DNA from: a virus
Lineage: Duplodnaviria; Caudoviricetes
Strand: one strand, 5' to 3'
IMG/VR virus record: IMGVR_UViG_3300034062_005626
Length of the DNA stretch: 64,000 bases
Part shown: positions 7,429 through 32,883 of the stretch, one piece after another
How positions within the stretch are numbered: the first letter of the stretch is position 1
How the letters are laid out: every line of letters starts with the position of its first letter
Made by a program: the position numbers and the translations under genes
The notes under the pieces: model-generated
Databases searched by the model: none
What the model was told of the DNA's origin: nothing
What the model saw: only the letters and a program-made list of their open reading frames with translations

Positions 7429-9017
7429 TGCCTGAAAACCAACCTTTAGAGGATAGTCAGATAATATTTTTTGGTGTCTGTGTTGACAATCAAGACCCAT
7501 TAATGCTTGGAAGAATACGATGTAAGCCCATACAAGAAAATATTCAAGCAATGGAAAGGGCAAAACAAGGGTTTGACGAAAATAGTAAAAGTACTTTGAA
7601 TGGTCCTTGGGGTGAAAAAGACCCTTTTATATTTTTACCTTTTTTACCTTATTTTGTTAATCAAGTTCCAAAAGTAGATGAGGCAGTTATGATTATTTAC
7701 TTTAATAATAAACTAACTAAAGGTAAAAATAGATTTTATATTCTTGCACCATACTCATCACCAACAACAATTTTTAAAGAAGACTATAGGTCTTTTAGAA
7801 CCCATACAGATATGGGTAATTCTAATTCAAGAGTAAATTTACCAAATATTAAAGACCCGTACTCTAAAACATACCCGAATAATAATAATACCGGAGTATT
7901 TCCTGAACCTGAAGATATATCAATTAATGGAAGAGGAACTTCCGATATGATAATAAAAAATAATGATTTATTATTAAGAGCAGGAAAACACAAACCATTT
8001 AAAACAGGTGAAATACCAGATTATGATGATAATAGAGCCTTTGTTCAATTATCAAAATTTACAAGTAAATTAAAATATGGTACACCCAAGTCTTATATTA
8101 GATTACAAAGAAATGAACAACAAATAAAATATCTTTTAGAGTATGATGTTTATAACCCTGAAAGTGCTCCACAAGTTTTTCAAGGGGATGTAACAATCTA
8201 TCAACTACCTGATAGAGAATCTAAGGCGACAAAAACAAACCAATTTGAGTGGGACACTGAAATAACAGGAACAACTTTATCTAAAGTAAGAATTATAAAA
8301 ATTGATTCACCATTGGGTATTGATGATTTTGCGAAGTTTGTTTCAGACCAAGTTGTAGCACTAAAAGATAATCCAAGTATTTTAATATCAAATATACCAA
8401 CTAACGCTAATGTAGGTTCAAATAATAATTCAAGTAACGAACTACAATTTCCTTTTTATTATAGACCCTCAAAAAGAATTAGAAATATCATAAAATCACT
8501 ACCCGACCAAAATAACATAACCGATTTTACAAATATGAATCAGTTATTATCAAAAGTATTAATAACTACAACAGATATTAGTCCTGGTTATGGTTTGGTA
8601 TTAGACAGAAAGGTTAGTCCTGAATTACCATTTTTACCATCAAGAGAAGTTTTTACACCAATTGATACTGAAGAAATAGATAATACTGTTGGGTTGATTG
8701 GGGCGTCTCAGTTATATTTACTTTCACATGATTCAGAAAATTCACAAGGTAAAATTACTTTATCAGGTTCTGTTGGAGGGATTAGTCCTGAACAAGTTTT
8801 TGATGAAATAGAACCTAAAACATCATCAATGGTTAGAGGAGAAGAATTGTTGGAACTTTTGGAATCAATTGTTGGGTTTTTAGTTAGTCACGTACATCCG
8901 TACCCGTTATTACCACCATCTGGAGTTTCTTATGATGGTACAAGTATAGACGAATTGACCAAAAAAATGTTAGAAGCATATCAAAAAGTTTTAAACAGTA
9001 ATATTCGGATTAACTAA
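7428..9017 (+). CDS. baseplate hub/spike protein, gp5/VgrG-like N-terminal OB fold
   Basis: FGVCVDNQDPLMLGRIRCK and VPKVDEAVMI motifs of Gp5-N OB domain; C-terminal HVHPY spike-type motif. Confidence 0.75.
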   Translation: MPENQPLEDSQIIFFGVCVDNQDPLMLGRIRCKPIQENIQAMERAKQGFDENSKSTLNGPWGEKDPFIFLPFLPYFVNQVPKVDEAVMIIYFNNKLTKGKNRFYILAPYSSPTTIFKEDYRSFRTHTDMGNSNSRVNLPNIKDPYSKTYPNNNNTGVFPEPEDISINGRGTSDMIIKNNDLLLRAGKHKPFKTGEIPDYDDNRAFVQLSKFTSKLKYGTPKSYIRLQRNEQQIKYLLEYDVYNPESAPQVFQGDVTIYQLPDRESKATKTNQFEWDTEITGTTLSKVRIIKIDSPLGIDDFAKFVSDQVVALKDNPSILISNIPTNANVGSNNNSSNELQFPFYYRPSKRIRNIIKSLPDQNNITDFTNMNQLLSKVLITTTDISPGYGLVLDRKVSPELPFLPSREVFTPIDTEEIDNTVGLIGASQLYLLSHDSENSQGKITLSGSVGGISPEQVFDEIEPKTSSMVRGEELLELLESIVGFLVSHVHPYPLLPPSGVSYDGTSIDELTKKMLEAYQKVLNSNIRIN

Positions 9018-9040
9018 CTATTTATATATAAAATAGTTTA

Positions 9041-10522
9041 ATGTCAATTTACAGGTCATATTTCGATAAAAGTAATACTCTAATACAAAATAGTTACACC
9101 AACACAGGTAGAAACCCTATTGTTGAGTTGTTCTACGGTCGTGTTGATAATTTTAATGCGCCAATAGGGTTTAGTAGATATATTTTTGACTTAGATTTAA
9201 CAGATTTACAGTCAAGAATTTCAGATAAAATTATCACTTCAGGATGTGGAACAAACTTTACCCACACTTTAAGAATGACAAATACGTCATATTTTGATGA
9301 AAATCTTTTAAATTCAACAACATCACAAGGAAGAAGAAGAGCAACATCTTTTGACTTAGTTCTATTTAGAATACCAAAAACTTTAGGAAACTCAGGTGTT
9401 CCTCAAAATTGGGACAGTGGTGTTGGATATGATTACTATGATTATCAAGTAACAAACTTAAATGATAGGTCATATTCGCAAAGAGCGTCCAATTGGTTCG
9501 AAACAACAACGGTAAGTGGTTGGAGTGTTAATGGTATATATGATAATACCAACTCAAAAATTGGTTCATTATCGGGATTAAATTATTCGGCATTAACAAT
9601 CGTAGCAACACAACATTTTGAATTTGGTAATGAAGATATTGAATTTAACATGACAAATGAAATAAATAACATTTTAAATGGTACATTAACAGGTGTCACA
9701 GGATGGGGAATTGCATTTTATCCTAATGTTGAAAATATTAGTGGTTTAACTGAAAATTATTCAGTAGGGTTTTTCTCCCCTCACACTCAAACTTTTTATG
9801 AACCGTTTTTAGAAACTAATTATAACGATTTAATTATTGATGATAGAAACAAATTTTATTCAGGTAATAATAATGAATTGTATTTGTATGTGTATGAAAA
9901 CGGAAATGCTGTTAATTTAGATAATTTACCAACGGTTGATATATTTGACTTGAATGGTGTTGCAGTACCAGGGTTTACGGGATTATCTACTTGCCAAGTA
10001 ACTAAAGGAGTTTACAAGTGTTCGGTAAACAATCTAACAGCATCGACAATACCTTGTTTATATTATGATGTTTGGAAGGGATTGTCAGTAAGTTCTACGT
10101 CAATTTCTAACGTGACTTTAGAATTTGCATTATTGGCTAAAAATGGAAACTTCCAAATAGGTTCTGTTACTCAACAACCAAAAATTTATGGTTTCGAATT
10201 TAATGGGATTAGACAAAACGAAAAAGTATTAAATACTGATATAAGAAAAGTCAACGTAATTATAAAACAAGCGTATTCAACAAACACACCACTAACAACA
10301 GTAGAGGCATATTATAGAATTTATGTAAGAGAAGGTGCAAGTACTGAGGTTCAAGTACAAGATTGGACAAGAGTCAATGAAGTTCCTGATGGGTTTTATT
10401 TTATTTTTGACACCACAGATAAAATACCAAATGAATATTTTGTTGATATTAAAGTTGTAAGTGATAGAAATGTTGATACTTATAAAAGAGAATTACAGTT
10501 TCAAATTGTAAATAAAAAATAA
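9041..10522 (+). CDS. putative virion structural protein (beta-rich)
   Basis: 493-aa Thr/Asn/Gly-rich ORF with late motif upstream, next to baseplate genes. Confidence 0.55.
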   Translation: MSIYRSYFDKSNTLIQNSYTNTGRNPIVELFYGRVDNFNAPIGFSRYIFDLDLTDLQSRISDKIITSGCGTNFTHTLRMTNTSYFDENLLNSTTSQGRRRATSFDLVLFRIPKTLGNSGVPQNWDSGVGYDYYDYQVTNLNDRSYSQRASNWFETTTVSGWSVNGIYDNTNSKIGSLSGLNYSALTIVATQHFEFGNEDIEFNMTNEINNILNGTLTGVTGWGIAFYPNVENISGLTENYSVGFFSPHTQTFYEPFLETNYNDLIIDDRNKFYSGNNNELYLYVYENGNAVNLDNLPTVDIFDLNGVAVPGFTGLSTCQVTKGVYKCSVNNLTASTIPCLYYDVWKGLSVSSTSISNVTLEFALLAKNGNFQIGSVTQQPKIYGFEFNGIRQNEKVLNTDIRKVNVIIKQAYSTNTPLTTVEAYYRIYVREGASTEVQVQDWTRVNEVPDGFYFIFDTTDKIPNEYFVDIKVVSDRNVDTYKRELQFQIVNKK

Positions 10523-16944: not shown

Positions 16945-17136
16945 ATGATTATTATCGAAGTTAAAAAAAATAATATTGAGCAAGCATTAAAACAATATAA
17001 ACTCAAGATATACAAAACAAAACAACTTGAGCATTTAAGAGACAGACAAGAATTTGAGAAAAAGTCCGTTAAGTCGAGAAAGAAAAAAATAAAGGCGGTT
17101 TATATACAAAAAATTAAAAATCAACTTTCTTCTTGA
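16945..17136 (+). CDS. rpsU: ribosomal protein bS21
   Basis: MIIIEVK..NIEQALKQYKLK...LRDRQEFEKKSVKSRKK..KAVYIQ matches the Bacteroidota bS21 pattern. Confidence 0.9.
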   Translation: MIIIEVKKNNIEQALKQYKLKIYKTKQLEHLRDRQEFEKKSVKSRKKKIKAVYIQKIKNQLSS

Positions 17137-25358: not shown

Positions 25359-27215
25359 TTATTTTACCTCTTCAAAATCTACATTTGTAACTTCTTCTTC
25401 ATTATCAGAACTTTCTGAAGCTTGGTTATACAAATTTTGACTTATTTTTTGAAACTCGTTATTTACCTCATCCATTAACGATTTAATATTTTCAATATTT
25501 TTTTCGTTATATGCAGTTTTTAGATTTTCAATTTTAGAAGTGATATTTTCTTTATCTTCATCTGAAATTTTATTTTTTAAATCTTCCAAAGACTTTGAAA
25601 CTTGAAAAATCATAGAATCTGCCGAATTTAATGTGTCAGCATCCTCTTTTAATTTTTTGTCAATTTCGGCATTTTGTTCTGCATCCATTTTCATTTTTTC
25701 AATTTCTTCTTTGGATAATCCTGATGAAGACTCAATTCTAATTGATTGAGTTTTATTTGTTGCTTTGTCTAATGCTGATACATTTATAATACCATTAGCG
25801 TCAATGTCAAAAGTAACTTCAATTTGAGGAACACCTCTTCTTGATGGTGGGAATCCGTCCAAATGGAACTTTCCGATAGTTTTATTGTCTTTAGCCATAG
25901 ACCTTTCTCCTTGCAATACATGAATTTCTACGGAAGGTTGATTATCGACTGCGGTTGAAAATACTTCAGATTTTTTTGTTGGGATTGTTGTGTTTGCACT
26001 TATTAGTTTAGTAAAAACACCCCCCATAGTTTCAATACCCAAAGATAGTGGTGTTACGTCCAATAATAATACATCTGTCACATCCCCACCTAATACACCA
26101 CCTTGGATTGCTGCCCCTAACGCAACCACCTCATCAGGGTTTACACCTTTTGATGGGTCTTTACCAAAAAACTTCTTAACCGCCTCTTGAATTGCGGGGA
26201 TTCTAGTTGAACCACCGACCAAAATAATTTCGTCAATATCTGAAGGTTTTAATCCCGCATTTTTAAGTGCTGATTCACATGGTTTGATAGTACGTTTTAC
26301 TAAATCTTCAGTTAATTGGTCAAATTTAGATTTTGTAATTTTTAAAACTAAATGTTTTGGTCCTGTTGAATCGGCAGTAAGATAAGGTAGATTGATGTCA
26401 GTTGAAGGTGAAGATGACAACTCAATTTTAGCTTTTTCTGCTGATTCTTTTAATCTTTGAATCGCCATAGGGTCTTTTGTGATGTCGATACTTGTTTCGT
26501 TTTTAAATTCACTAACCATGTAATCAATTAAAACTTGGTCAAAATCATCTCCACCTAAATGAGTATCTCCGTCTGTAGATAAAACTTCAAATACACCGTC
26601 ACCAAGTTCCAAAATCGAAACGTCATGAGTACCACCTCCACAGTCAAAAACAACAATTTTCATTTCTTTTGACATTTTATCTAATCCGTATGCTAAAGCC
26701 GCTGCGGTTGGTTCGTTTATAATTCTTCTAACCGTTAATCCCGCAATTTCACCAGCTTCTTTTGTTGCTTGTCTTTGAGCGTCATTAAAATATGCGGGTA
26801 CGGTGATGACCGCCTCAGTTACTTTTTCACCTAAGTAGTCTTCAGCTGTTTGTTTCATTTTTTGTAAAATAGTTGCTGAAATTTCTTGAGGTGAAAATTT
26901 CTTATCGTCAATAAGAACTCTTGGATTATTTTTTTCACTCACAACTTTATAAGGTACTTTTTTGATTTCACTTTTTGTTTCATCAAAACTTGTACCCATA
27001 AATCTTTTAATTGAGTATATTGTTTTTTCAGGATTTGTCACCGCCTGTCTTTTTGCGGGGTCTCCAATTTTTCTCTCACCGTCTTTAACAAATCCAACAA
27101 CTGATGGTGTTGTTCTTTTTCCTTCGCTGTTTGTAATTACTACCGGCTCACGACCTTCCATTACTGCTACACAAGAATTAGTTGTTCCTAAGTCTATACC
27201 AATAATTTTTCCCAT
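25359..27215 (-). CDS. dnaK: Hsp70 chaperone DnaK
   Basis: [37 protein letters not shown] linker, DNQPSV, DFEEVK tail. Confidence 0.98.
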
Positions 27216-27290: not shown

Positions 27291-27335
27291 TGACAAAATG
27301 TCAGTATCGTCAACATATGTCAAGACATAATGTCA
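27291..27335. promoter_or_regulatory. candidate operator array TGACA-N3-TGTCA between divergent dnaK and clpC
   Basis: Perfect inverted repeat 27291-27303, imperfect copy 27323-27335, additional YGTCA half-sites at 27308 and 27318. Confidence 0.5.
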
Positions 27336-27394: not shown

Positions 27395-29437
27395 ATGATT
27401 GAATCAGCAGACAACAACGAAAAAGACAAAGGAAAAAAAACTGAAACCACAGGTAAAACACCCGTGTTGGATAATTTTTCAAGAGATTTAATAAAAGCGG
27501 CAGAAGAGGGTAAATTGGACCCTATTATTGGAAGAGAACAAGAAATTAACAGGATTGCACAAATTCTATCAAGAAGAAAAAAGAATAACCCAATTATTAT
27601 TGGTGAACCTGGTTGTGGAAAAACTGCTATTGTGGAAGGATTAGCCAAAAAAATATTTGAAGGGGATTGTCCTCAGAATTTAGTTAGTAAAAGAATTGTC
27701 TCTTTAGATTTAACCTCTGTAGTTGCAGGAACAAAGTATAGAGGTCAGTTTGAAGAAAGAATGAAAGTTATAATTGAAGAATTATACGCAAATCCTGACA
27801 TCATTATTTTTATAGATGAAATCCACACTATGATTGGTGCCGGAAATGCATCAGGTTCCATGGATGCGTCAAATATATTTAAACCAGCGTTGTCAAGAGG
27901 AGAAATTCAATGTATTGGTGCAACCACATTAGAAGAATATAGAAAAAATATTGAAAAGGATGGGGCTCTTGAAAGAAGGTTTCAAAAAGTTGTTGTAGAC
28001 CCATCAACCAAAGAAGAAACTTTAGAAATACTAAAACAATCCAAAGACCGTTACGAAAAACACCATAAAGTTAGATATAGTGAAGATATTTTGAAACTAT
28101 GTGTTGAATTGGCCGATAGATATATTACCGACAGAGAATTTCCTGATAAGGCGTTTGATATACTTGATGAGGTTGGAGCAAGAAGTCAGGTGGAAATCAA
28201 ATTACCTGAATCTATTGAAAAACTAAAAAAAGAAGCTCAAGAAATAAAAGAACAAAAAATAGAAGTAATTAATAAACAAAGGTACGAAGAGGCTGCAAAT
28301 TTAAGAGATAGAGAAAGAAAAGTTTTATCAGAACTTCAAAAAGAAAAAGAAGATTTTGAAAAAAACAGAGACCTTTACCGAAAAGAAGTTACAGAAGAAA
28401 TTGTTTATGATGTTACTTCTTTGATGACAAAAATTCCTATTAATAAAATCACAACTGATGAATCAATTCAATTAGCATCATTACATGAAGTATTAAACAC
28501 AAGAGTAATTGGTCAAAATGAGGCGGTTTCCAAAATTGCAAGAGCAATACAAAGAAATAAAGTTGGTTTAAATGACCCTAAAAAACCAATATTTAGCGGA
28601 TTATTAATTGGTAATTCAGGTGTTGGTAAAACTGAATTAGCAAAACAGTTGGCAAAACATATGTTTAATAGTGAAGACGCACTTATTAGGTTGGATATGA
28701 GTGAATTTTCAGATAAAGTTGCAACATCAAAATTAACAGGAACATCACCAGGTTATGTTGGGTATGAAGATGGTTCACCATTTTTGAACAAAATTAAAAA
28801 CAAACCTTATTCTGTTATTTTATTGGATGAAATAGAAAAGGCTCACCCAGAAATTTTTAATGTATTTTTACAAATGTTAGATGAAGGGTTTTTAACCGAT
28901 GGTCACGGTAGAAAAATTAACTTTAAAAATTGTATTATCCTTATGACATCAAATGTTGGAACAAGAGTTGTTCAACAATTTGGTACAGGTGTTGGGTTTT
29001 CAACATCACATAAAGAAGAAACAAAAGATGAAGAAATAAAATCTTTATTGGAAAAAGAACTTTTTAAAAAGTTTGCACCTGAGTTTATCAATAGATTTGA
29101 TGATATTGTATACTTTAAAGACTTGAATGACAATGATTTAATGAAGATTTTGAATTTAGAACTTGAAAAATTATATACAAGAGTTTCAAATCTTGAATTT
29201 AATGTTGAAGTTGATGAATCACTAAAAAATCACTTAATTAAAGTGGGTACGGACACTAGATTTGGAGCTCGTATTTTGAAAAGAACGGTTCAAAAGTGGG
29301 TGGATGATGCGATTACAGAAAAAGTACTTTCAGATAAGCCAGATAAAAACTCTACATTTTTACTGTCGTATGATGAAAAAAATAATAAAACAGAAGTTAA
29401 AATAAAAAAACCAACAAAAAGAAAAGGTAAGGTTTAA
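27395..29437 (+). CDS. clpC: ClpC-type AAA+ unfoldase lacking the N-terminal repeat domain
   Basis: Two AAA modules (GEPGCGKT, GNSGVGKT), FIDEIH, LLDEIEKAH, short UVR-like M domain, VGF ClpP-docking loop. Confidence 0.9.
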   Translation: MIESADNNEKDKGKKTETTGKTPVLDNFSRDLIKAAEEGKLDPIIGREQEINRIAQILSRRKKNNPIIIGEPGCGKTAIVEGLAKKIFEGDCPQNLVSKRIVSLDLTSVVAGTKYRGQFEERMKVIIEELYANPDIIIFIDEIHTMIGAGNASGSMDASNIFKPALSRGEIQCIGATTLEEYRKNIEKDGALERRFQKVVVDPSTKEETLEILKQSKDRYEKHHKVRYSEDILKLCVELADRYITDREFPDKAFDILDEVGARSQVEIKLPESIEKLKKEAQEIKEQKIEVINKQRYEEAANLRDRERKVLSELQKEKEDFEKNRDLYRKEVTEEIVYDVTSLMTKIPINKITTDESIQLASLHEVLNTRVIGQNEAVSKIARAIQRNKVGLNDPKKPIFSGLLIGNSGVGKTELAKQLAKHMFNSEDALIRLDMSEFSDKVATSKLTGTSPGYVGYEDGSPFLNKIKNKPYSVILLDEIEKAHPEIFNVFLQMLDEGFLTDGHGRKINFKNCIILMTSNVGTRVVQQFGTGVGFSTSHKEETKDEEIKSLLEKELFKKFAPEFINRFDDIVYFKDLNDNDLMKILNLELEKLYTRVSNLEFNVEVDESLKNHLIKVGTDTRFGARILKRTVQKWVDDAITEKVLSDKPDKNSTFLLSYDEKNNKTEVKIKKPTKRKGKV

Positions 29438-30100: not shown

Positions 30101-30130
30101 AATTAATTTTATTATATACAATAAATATAT

Positions 30131-30138
30131 TATATTTG
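30131..30138 (+). promoter_or_regulatory. Bacteroidota -7 promoter element TATATTTG
   Basis: TAnnTTTG consensus 14 nt upstream of the peptidase ATG. Confidence 0.6.
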
Positions 30139-30152
30139 TAAAAAACAAAATA

Positions 30153-31214
30153 ATGGACCTACAAAAATTTAAAGAACTCCTTTCAGTACCATCGAAAACA
30201 TATCAAGAAGAAGATATGGTAGAATATATTTGTGATGAGTTGGAAAAAATTCATGGAGTTACGTTTTATCGTGATAATATGATGAACATATACGCAACAA
30301 AGGGTACATTAGAAGAAGGTGAATTTTATCCCATGTTTATTGCTCACACTGATACGGTTCACAACAAAATAGATAAGATTGTTGTTAAAGAAGAAAAATT
30401 AAAACGACCATACACTTTTGGTAAAAATTTTCACGATAATCTTGTTGACGTATTGAAAGCTTACGATGTTAATGATTTACCGACAGGCATTGGGGGTGAT
30501 GACAAATGTGGTATTTTTATTTGTTTAGAATTACTTAAACAATTAGACAAAGTAAAAATTGGTTTATTTGTAAGTGAAGAAACGGGTTGTCACGGTTCAT
30601 CAAAATGTGATGAAACTTTTTTGCAAGATGTAGGTTATATCACACAATACGATGCACCTGGCAACCATTTAATTACCGAGATTTGCTCGGGAGTTCGTTT
30701 ATTTGAACGGGATAGTGAATTTTTTACAAAAACATCAAAAGTTATTACCGAATCTTTTGGAAATGAAATGTTAGTTCAATCACATCCTTATACTGATATT
30801 TCACAGTTAAAGAAAAAAATTGATGTGTCTTGCATCAACATGTCTTGCGGTTATTACAATATGCATTCACCACAAGAGTTTATTTCAATTGAAGATGTAA
30901 AATGTGCAATTGAAGCTGGAAAAAACATGGTTAAAGAATTGGGGTTAAAAAAATATGAATATCAATATAAACCGATAGTTTATACACCTACAACCGTTAT
31001 GAACTCATTTGTTGAAGAATTTGATGATGATTTAGATATTTTTGAAGTACAAGAAATAGAAAGTCATCATCGTTTACAAACTATTGATGTATATGAGGAA
31101 AAAGATGGAATCACACTAACTGATGTTTACGATGATGGTTTTATGTTTATTCCTGATGAGGATTTGGCAAATTTATATGAAATTATTAGAGAAAGATTAA
31201 TTAAAAAATATTAA
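30153..31214 (+). CDS. M28/M20/M42-clan zinc peptidase
   Basis: AHTDTVH, GGDDKCG, EETGCHGS, GYYNMHS metal-ligand motifs. Confidence 0.85.
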   Translation: MDLQKFKELLSVPSKTYQEEDMVEYICDELEKIHGVTFYRDNMMNIYATKGTLEEGEFYPMFIAHTDTVHNKIDKIVVKEEKLKRPYTFGKNFHDNLVDVLKAYDVNDLPTGIGGDDKCGIFICLELLKQLDKVKIGLFVSEETGCHGSSKCDETFLQDVGYITQYDAPGNHLITEICSGVRLFERDSEFFTKTSKVITESFGNEMLVQSHPYTDISQLKKKIDVSCINMSCGYYNMHSPQEFISIEDVKCAIEAGKNMVKELGLKKYEYQYKPIVYTPTTVMNSFVEEFDDDLDIFEVQEIESHHRLQTIDVYEEKDGITLTDVYDDGFMFIPDEDLANLYEIIRERLIKKY

Positions 31215-32356: not shown

Positions 32357-32372
32357 ATATTTATAAATATAT
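32355..32372. promoter_or_regulatory. 18-bp perfect palindrome containing late motif (ATATATTTATAAATATAT)
   Basis: Self-complementary; contains TATTTAT on both strands. Confidence 0.6.
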
Positions 32373-32394
32373 TGTGAAATATAAATATTTGTAT

Positions 32395-32402
32395 TATATT
32401 TG
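32395..32402 (+). promoter_or_regulatory. Bacteroidota -7 element TATATTTG for tmRNA
   Basis: Consensus match with TTG 20 nt upstream; 37 nt before the mature 5' end. Confidence 0.55.
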
Positions 32403-32439
32403 TTTTATAGTTCTTTGAAAATAGTCATTTAAGATATAT

Positions 32440-32827
32440 GGGCCTATATTGGAATTGACGGGCGTTGGTTGAATAAAAGAAGCATGTCGGGACTGAATTA
32501 ATCTCGTTAAAAACTGATTCAAAAAACAACTGGCAATGTGCTAAACAACCTTGAGACTTTGGGACTTATCTCAACTCAAGAAGTTACTGTAGCTTAATTA
32601 AGATACGGAAACGGGGGGTCGGCAGACATATAACCTAGCAACAGAAGTCGTAGTTGTGGTGGATTACTATTGAACCCTAAATCGAATGGTGACCATTGGT
32701 TGTTGATTTACGATGGTGAAGAACAAATCAACTATTTTGGAATATTAGAAAATATTAACCTAAACGTGTAGTTGTCTTTTAGACAAAACGAGCCGGACGA
32801 GGGAGTCGGAGCCCTCTAGGTCCACCA
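32440..32827 (+). ncRNA. ssrA: tmRNA (388 nt)
   Basis: Acceptor stem GGGCCTA/TAGGTCC with G3:U70, A73 and encoded CCA; 5' GGAATTGACGG; PK1 (CGGGA/TCTCG, TGAATT/GATTCA); tag ORF 32532-32597; CCTAAACGTGTAG and GGAC 3' elements. Confidence 0.95.
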
Positions 32828-32830
32828 ACT

Positions 32831-32864
32831 AATCCCACTATTTAATTATGGTGGGATTTTTTTT
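32831..32864 (+). terminator. intrinsic terminator after tmRNA
   Basis: AATCCCACTAT...ATGGTGGGATT hairpin plus T-tract. Confidence 0.85.
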
Positions 32865-32883
32865 AATATTTTTTTCAAAAAAA

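Follow-up and report, generated by a model that had tools for sequence, protein, structure and literature searches.

Transfer-messenger RNA (tmRNA) genes are known from Bxz1-type mycobacteriophages and Bacillus phage G (PMC4131195), are carried by huge phages (PMC7162821) and were detected by ARAGORN in 2.3% of a set of 18,146 phage genomes, one of the finds being the Melnitz tmRNA, which is of the two-piece type (PMC9004378). We analyzed a stretch of 64,000 nucleotides (nt) from the Caudoviricetes record IMGVR_UViG_3300034062_005626 of IMG/VR (hereafter the window), in which a one-piece tmRNA gene lies near the middle. Similar to the known phage tmRNAs, it is a complete tmRNA in a large phage of lytic type, and the roles proposed for those tmRNAs (i.e., maintaining hijacked translation and tagging proteins for recycling) would also apply to it. 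In contrast to them, it belongs to a freshwater T4-like clade with Bacteroidota-type genes and writes a tag from a family of its own. Some huge phages also carry SmpB, whereas the present clade was found without it.

The one-piece tmRNA of Bacteroidota resembles that of the window in having a tRNA-like part with a G3:U pair and a CCA end, a first pseudoknot (PK1), a resume codon about 10 nt past PK1, a stop codon in the loop of helix 5 and further pseudoknots, and the Bacteroides tag likewise begins with Gly (GGN). The two differ in the tag, which has 21 residues and a T-V-A end in the phage but 9 residues and an L-A-A end in Bacteroides, in the T-loop, which has eight bases in the phage copy, and in the location of the phage copy in a phage without an SmpB gene. 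As the reference for the host phylum we used one published tag, the native 9-residue Bacteroides tag GETNYALAA, which drives strong degradation (bioRxiv 10.1101/2025.03.18.644028). On the evidence given below, we consider it likely that the phage gene encodes a functional one-piece tmRNA that writes a conserved tag, probably a phage-specific degradation tag.

The tmRNA gene and its tag reading frame

32440..32827, + strand: one-piece tmRNA, 388 nt (RF00023, 75.7 bits, E 1.4e-27)
32488..32521, + strand: pseudoknot PK1 (Rfam alignment)
32532..32597, + strand: tag frame with resume codon GGC, 21 codons and stop codon TAA at 32595-32597 (codon comparison among relatives)
32583..32612, + strand: helix 5 with the stop codon within its loop (Rfam alignment and RNAalifold, columns 147-154 / 169-176)

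The Rfam alignment covered the whole RF00023 model (positions 1-374), scored well above the gathering score of 47 and returned the same coordinates as the first-pass annotation of this DNA, while ARAGORN reported no tmRNA in the window, so that of the two programs proposed there for checking the gene only Rfam detected it. The acceptor strands, read directly, are GGGCCUA (32440-32446) and UAGGUCC (32817-32823), which form seven base pairs (bp) including G3:U, and the 3′ end ACCA is encoded at 32824-32827. The gene thus has the G3:U pair and A-CCA end that give a tmRNA acceptor its alanine identity. It also has the layout of a one-piece tmRNA, in which PK1 is followed by ten unpaired bases, the GGC at 32532 and an open tag frame whose stop codon lies inside the helix 5 loop. 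The tag-coding stretch contains a 31-nt insertion relative to the Rfam consensus. The window's tmRNA is shorter than most of its relatives (395-420 nt), with about 30 nt missing around the third or fourth pseudoknot (about 32660-32740), a short form that it shares with the related loci L042, L115, and L112.

The tmRNA had no blastn match among 50,697 deposited phage genomes, and the nearest of the related records searched, the IMG/VR fragment G001, had no Rfam match, its tmRNA gene being cut at the contig end. Relatives were collected from IMG/VR, in which two pattern scans yielded 34 loci and two scans with the neighboring ClpC yielded 160 more, from 416 and at least 599 matching contigs. The tmRNAs of the second, more distant ClpC set were located by nhmmer, supplemented by Rfam on five loci.

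The first ClpC set provided 81 readable tags that reduced to 20 distinct versions of 66 nt. The GGC frame was free of internal stops in all 20 versions, while each of the other two frames contained stops in 20 of 20, and the synonymous share of the differing codon pairs was 0.41 in the GGC frame vs. 0.13 and 0.00 in the others. Among these versions, codon 3 was GTA, GTT, or GTG, codon 4 was CTA, CTT, TTA, or TTG, codon 11 was GGT, GGA, or GGG, codons 12 and 18 changed only synonymously, and the stop at codon 22 was TAA, TAG, or TGA. The second set added about 30 further peptide variants of 21-22 residues. A frame of 21-22 codons was kept in more than 140 related viral contigs. The frame comparison thus bears out the resume codon GGC at 32532, 10 nt after PK1, as well as the 21-residue tag and the translation that the first-pass annotation had derived from it.

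The clade tag pattern is G-N-[VIL]-[LI]-x-K-[ML]-x-x-hydrophobic-G-L-hydrophobic-R-x-x-E-x-x-V-A, from which the window's allele differs at positions 6 (N) and 14 (S). Across the clade, an N-terminal hydrophobic block is joined to the V-A of the C-terminus by a linker that is short and variable. All but one of the second-set variants ended with V-A, the exception being I-A. Three second-set tmRNAs read by hand had tags of 21-22 residues, all with a V-A end; the divergent copies read in this way, one with a GAC start, matched the same pattern. Overall, every tag read ended with V-A except for the I-A variant and that of L077 (14155-14560), a single contig in which TAT replaces the stop codon and the tag is extended by one residue (...V-A-Y); this stop loss may reflect a sequence error or a decaying copy. 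None of the open reading frames of the window ended with V-A, so that no natural protein there looks like a model for the tag.

This comparison of tags across related phages, which had been proposed earlier, indicates selection on the tag at the peptide level throughout a large clade of phages. Given that the conservation extends over the whole length of the tag, some protein would have to read it. The tag is not of the canonical ClpXP type, with about 9-11 residues and an (L/Y/V)-A-A end; its C-terminus is ...E-V-T-V-A, and it shares only the first Gly with the Bacteroides tag, in agreement with its previous description as non-standard.

Two other resume codons would yield a shorter tag. In the +1 frame, GCA-ATG-TGC-stop would encode three codons, and this stop was conserved in the first 21 relatives, but the other alleles run to a different, later stop and have lost the three-codon tag. 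An in-frame GCA at codon 14 would yield a tag of 8 residues, and ARAGORN called exactly such tags, starting with A-T-E, from this internal codon in L042 (8859-9244) and L047 (8944-9348). Codon 14 is, however, GCA in only some alleles, being TCA in the window and AGA in another, while codons 2-13 differ mostly synonymously or conservatively and the position of GGC, 10 nt past PK1, is the usual one. With both alternatives failing, no canonical short tag emerged from another resume codon. The tags called in L042 and L047 are mis-calls, and automated annotations of such phages would carry a wrong tag.

Allelic exchange, the eight-base T-loop and putative transcription signals

The predicted RNA structure is supported by covariation. 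RNAalifold with 25 diverse relatives gave 45 pairs, 14 of which showed compensatory changes, located in the acceptor stem, helix 2, PK1, helix 5, a later hairpin and the T-stem. All 25 relatives had the G3:U pair despite covariation at position 4. In PK1, stem 1 alternated among C-G, A-U, and G-C (alignment columns 51/69), and stem 2 showed double compensatory changes in L012, L008, and L021. In helix 5, the change of codon 21 from GCT to GCC was matched by a change on the 3′ side.

The comparison also revealed exchange among alleles. L115 (3666-4053) has the body and tag of the window but a canonical tRNA-like part with a GGGGGCG acceptor strand and a 7-base UUCGAGU loop. L042 (about 8859-9245) has the later pseudoknots of the window together with another tag allele and a canonical tRNA-like part, and its ClpC protein is 100% identical to that of the window. 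These alignments indicate that the tmRNA is a recombination mosaic, in which tRNA-like ends, tag allele and pseudoknot body have been swapped independently, and the exchange is seen among phages whose ClpC proteins are 99-100% identical.

A tmRNA T-arm typically has a 5-bp stem and a 7-base UUCGAnn loop, a loop form that we took as typical rather than defining. That of the window was read directly as follows.

32799..32816, + strand: T-arm with a 5-bp stem GAGGG/CCCUC and an 8-base loop AGUCGGAG

The stem strands lie at 32799-32803 and 32812-32816, and the loop of the Rfam consensus has seven bases. Sister alleles in the same phage clade carry the usual 7-base loop. Among relatives with the longer loop, the T-stem covaries while the eight bases are kept, and the 8-base loop was combined with four T-stems and three acceptor stems, all of them covarying; its occurrence with several covarying stems suggests a maintained variant rather than an error. 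When 185,579 species of bacteria and archaea, represented by one genome apiece, were scanned for the exact pattern of the 8-base T-arm, no tmRNA with it emerged. The sole match lay in coding DNA of a Paraconexibacter contig with 72% G+C, in which Rfam detected no tmRNA, and was attributed to chance. The unusual loop alone does not explain why ARAGORN missed the gene, since it also misses relatives with a canonical T-loop; it missed 6 of the 8 relatives tested. As ARAGORN-based surveys miss or mis-read this tmRNA family, their counts of phage tmRNAs are underestimates.

A candidate Seg-like homing endonuclease of 275 residues, with weak Pfam matches (GIY-YIG, 20.9 bits; NUMOD3, 20.4 bits), was noticed on the + strand of L042 at 9290-10117, about 45 nt past the tmRNA. 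It is also found in L115, L059, L047, L048, L098, L116, L062, and L101, while the window is without it. The candidate accompanied 9 of 26 loci with a 7-base T-loop vs. 0 of 35 with an 8-base T-loop (Fisher p = 0.0002, the loci not being independent). The tRNA-like part with the 8-base loop might be an endonuclease-free or endonuclease-resistant allele.

The sequences flanking the tmRNA contain the following putative transcription signals.

32371..32402, + strand: promoter-like boxes, ATTG at 32371-32374, then 20 bases, then TATATTTG at 32395-32402 (read directly)
32410..32418, + strand: boxA-like leader motif GTTCTTTGA, downstream of the promoter boxes and ahead of the mature 5′ end
32831..32866, + strand: intrinsic terminator, consisting of a hairpin with 11 pairs and a subsequent T run, starting 4 bases past CCA

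The promoter-like boxes appear to resemble the Bacteroidota -33/-7 arrangement, and their layout is kept upstream of most related tmRNAs. The motif TAnnTTTG was not enriched across the window (122 matches vs. 115 expected) and was not used as evidence for the host. The leader between boxes and tmRNA is about 37 nt long, and GTTCTTTGA is kept, or altered at one or two bases, in most relatives. Most relatives also have a hairpin and T run past CCA, the stem sequence of which differs in several, so that the function of the terminator, and not its sequence alone, appears to be conserved. Judged from its promoter-like boxes, leader and terminator, the tmRNA is predicted to be its own transcription unit. 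A TATATTTG box also lies just upstream of a peptidase-like gene (30120-30152), as it does for the tmRNA, while clpC is without such a box; the peptidase-like gene and the tmRNA may share a promoter class.

Four metatranscriptome libraries from freshwater (four studies) contained contigs that matched the window, only within 32439-32773 and with 90-100% likeness, and one of these contigs, 166 nt long, was identical to the window over 32620-32773. The contigs covered neither the flanks nor the last 55 nt of the tmRNA gene. They are consistent with a stable RNA.

Phage setting and the neighboring ClpC

The window encodes a T4-like portal, a large terminase, a prohead protease, a major head protein and a collagen-like tail fiber, and the tmRNA is a phage gene. 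Related records reach 272-292 kilobases (kb), with a CheckV completeness of 93-99%. A window gene that combines SprB repeats with a CHU_C signal for type IX secretion points to Bacteroidota as the host phylum. Searches for SmpB (PF01668) and ClpP (PF00574) in nine related viral records, three of which are 93%, 96%, and 99% complete, gave no match, while in 14 control genomes the two families scored above their cut-offs in 10 and 12 genomes, respectively. None of the approximately 30 open reading frames scanned in the window encodes SmpB, as had been noted previously. Thus, the tmRNA must depend on SmpB of the host, and the ClpP for any Clp proteolysis must likewise come from the host. In more distant relatives, the tmRNA is followed at a distance of 1.6-3.3 kb by GOLLD RNA (RF02032; on the - strand, L168:16365-16758, 298 bits, and L157:18060-18281, 184 bits) and several tRNAs; in the window, none of these RNAs was found.

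27395..29437, + strand: ClpC-type unfoldase, 680 residues, without N-domain (Pfam AAA, AAA_lid_9, AAA_2, ClpB_D2-small)
25359..27215, - strand: DnaK (Hsp70), divergent from clpC (PF00012, 865.7 bits)
30153..31214, + strand: zinc peptidase-like gene (weak M42/M20 matches, 24.8 and 23.4 bits)
16945..17136, + strand: phage-encoded bS21 (PF01165, 43.6 bits)

These assignments uphold most of the gene list of the first-pass annotation, i.e., DnaK, bS21 and a ClpC without an N-domain; the gene described there as an M28-like peptidase is peptidase-like, but its matches are weak and to M42/M20 rather than M28. The phage ClpC aligned to residues 149-805 of Staphylococcus aureus ClpC (E 2e-196) with the M-domain kept, and the missing N-domain is evident from the start of this alignment at residue 149 and from the lack of a Pfam match to Clp_N; upstream of clpC, the divergent dnaK is only 179 nt away. 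The protein has the two AAA+ modules, M-domain and (I/L/V)-G-F docking loop of a class I Clp/Hsp100 unfoldase. Its ClpP-docking motif is GVGF at residues 532-535, and G-[VIML]-G-F was found in 158 of 158 phage homologs, in varying surroundings. As the phage has no ClpP, the persistence of the docking motif argues for docking of the unfoldase on the ClpP of the host, and the phage ClpC probably feeds a protease. The two AAA+ modules, M-domain and ClpP-docking loop are likewise found in the Firmicutes ClpC proteins (S. aureus 6em9, Bacillus subtilis 3j3s); unlike these, the phage protein has no N-terminal domain for adaptors or phospho-arginine, and the phage has no ClpP. The divergent dnaK-clpC intergenic region of 179 nt contains three ATGTCA repeats (27298, 27317, 27330; 27298-27335) that are unlike the tmRNA boxes and may be an operator common to dnaK and clpC.

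The clpC gene precedes the tmRNA at a distance of 2.0-7.4 kb, both being on the same strand, in 52 of the 52 first-set loci with a tmRNA and in 64 of 80 second-set loci. All first-set loci whose downstream flank reaches at least 6.5 kb have the tmRNA. Most of the second-set loci in which no tmRNA was seen end too early; no tmRNA was found within 5.5 kb in L170 and 3.3 kb in L174. This linkage is gene order inherited within one clade and cannot show a functional tie.

The association of these genes has led to the proposal of a circuit for rescue and proteolysis owned by the phage. The present analysis does not sustain it: the phage has no ClpP, the tmRNA appears to be a separate transcription unit, and opposite-strand genes lie between clpC and the tmRNA. 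Nor is the locus a self-contained module in which the phage supplies both protease chamber and delivery protein, as neither ClpP nor SmpB was found in relatives that are 93-99% complete. A narrower version, in which the phage ClpC docked on host ClpP specifically reads the tag and so bypasses host ClpXP, fits the position of clpC upstream of the tmRNA in nearly all loci, the invariant G-x-G-F motif, the V-A rather than A-A end of the tag and the missing N-domain. ClpA deprived of the N-domain remains able to degrade substrates with an ssrA tag. The linkage is, however, not independent evidence, the tmRNA has its own boxes and terminator, and the motifs in the dnaK-clpC intergenic region differ from the tmRNA promoter. 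Furthermore, ClpC proteins that are 99-100% identical adjoin different tag alleles and tRNA-like parts (L042 and L115 vs. the window), and no rule is known by which ClpC would recognize a C-terminal V-A. Given the near-identical ClpC proteins with different tags and the separate transcription units, a private tag read by ClpC stays hypothetical, and we regard it as unlikely. ClpC could read the tag, if at all, only via the conserved tag positions.

Proposed mechanism and implications

In the mechanism that we favor, i.e., a functional tmRNA writing a phage-specific degradation tag, host alanyl-tRNA synthetase would charge the tmRNA, as suggested by its G3:U pair and ACCA end, and host EF-Tu would carry the charged tmRNA to stalled ribosomes, where host SmpB would deliver it. 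Translation would resume at the GGC at 32532, and the nascent chain would gain the charged Ala plus 21 residues ending with ...E-V-T-V-A. The hydrophobic block and V-A end could then serve as a two-part signal for an AAA+ protease, which is the most likely reader of the tag; candidates are host ClpXP, Lon, FtsH, a tail-specific protease, or phage ClpC with host ClpP. If the mRNA of the infected host decays, stalled ribosomes would be plentiful, and the phage would benefit from the recycling of ribosomes during this decay and from the disposal of truncated products.

Several points weigh against this interpretation. Charging, tagging and degradation are inferred from sequence only, and the identity of the host is likewise indirect. 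Selection on the peptide implies a reader, not that the reader is a protease. The 8-base T-loop is off the norm of tRNAs and tmRNAs and could impair contacts with SmpB, EF-Tu, or modification enzymes; the case for function despite this loop comes from the conservation and tag selection among the copies that carry it. The metatranscriptome contigs are no proof of transcription, as carry-over of DNA is possible and the contigs show neither RNA ends nor strand; contig flanks that differ from those of the window could not be aligned to it.

Similar two-part and lengthened tags are known from cellular systems. The E. coli ssrA tag works with the SspB adaptor, and its layout, consisting of an upstream block, a linker and a C-terminal protease signal, is comparable to that of the phage tag, although the two are not alike in sequence and the phage tag has no known adaptor. 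The ssrA tags of Mycoplasma and Mesoplasma are reportedly read by Lon, a finding attributed to Gur and Sauer in 2008. Like the phage tag, they are long, have a non-LAA end and are read along much of their length, which provides a precedent for a tag and a protease changing together. Unlike the phage, these are cellular genomes without ClpXP, whereas the host of the phage is expected to keep both tmRNA and ClpXP, with the phage tag as a second tag in the cell.

A more far-reaching possibility is that a whole clade of freshwater Bacteroidota jumbo phages runs a second, orthogonal tagging channel in infected cells, in which the phage tmRNA works with SmpB and ribosomes of the host but writes a two-part V-A tag, ignored by host ClpXP and read by the phage ClpC without N-domain on host ClpP. 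The 8-base T-loop allele would in addition escape the Seg-like endonuclease that adjoins the canonical allele. We consider this quite unlikely; if true, the phage would decide which of the rescued products get destroyed.

The tag might instead be a weak degron or none, so that ribosomes are rescued without destruction of the products, which would be spared, sequestered or chaperone-bound. ClpX reads C-termini of the LAA type, which the tag lacks; DnaK and ClpC are encoded nearby; and the hydrophobic N-terminal block resembles chaperone-binding segments. An inert tag would not, however, stay constant over 21 residues in more than 140 contigs, and nonpolar C-termini are typical protease signals. 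Rescue without destruction is thus distinctly improbable.

A role as a decoy, in which the RNA would mainly bind up host SmpB, or compete with the tmRNA of the host, and thereby stop host trans-translation, has been suggested for the tRNA-like-only fragment of mycobacteriophage DS6A (PMC4131195), and the missing phage SmpB and the odd T-loop would suit it. The phage tmRNA has, however, a complete message part, and its frame is under peptide-level selection even in copies with the 8-base T-loop; as such selection requires translation, we find a decoy very hard to credit. A short tag from another resume codon, finally, is barely tenable in view of the frame comparison given above.

To conclude, the comparison adds to the described phage tmRNAs a clade-wide, phage-only family of tags with 21-22 residues and a V-A end, for the translation of which the codon comparison provides strong evidence. 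It also adds an 8-base T-loop allele and the modular exchange of tRNA-like part, tag and body. For a phage tag, this clade gives unusually clean comparative evidence of translation and of reading as a peptide. The 8-base T-loop offers a natural test of how much the tRNA-like part tolerates, and the tag would be a useful tool in Bacteroidota, if it is orthogonal to the host. The finding also makes it testable whether a virus installs a degradation code of its own and by which protease such a code is read.
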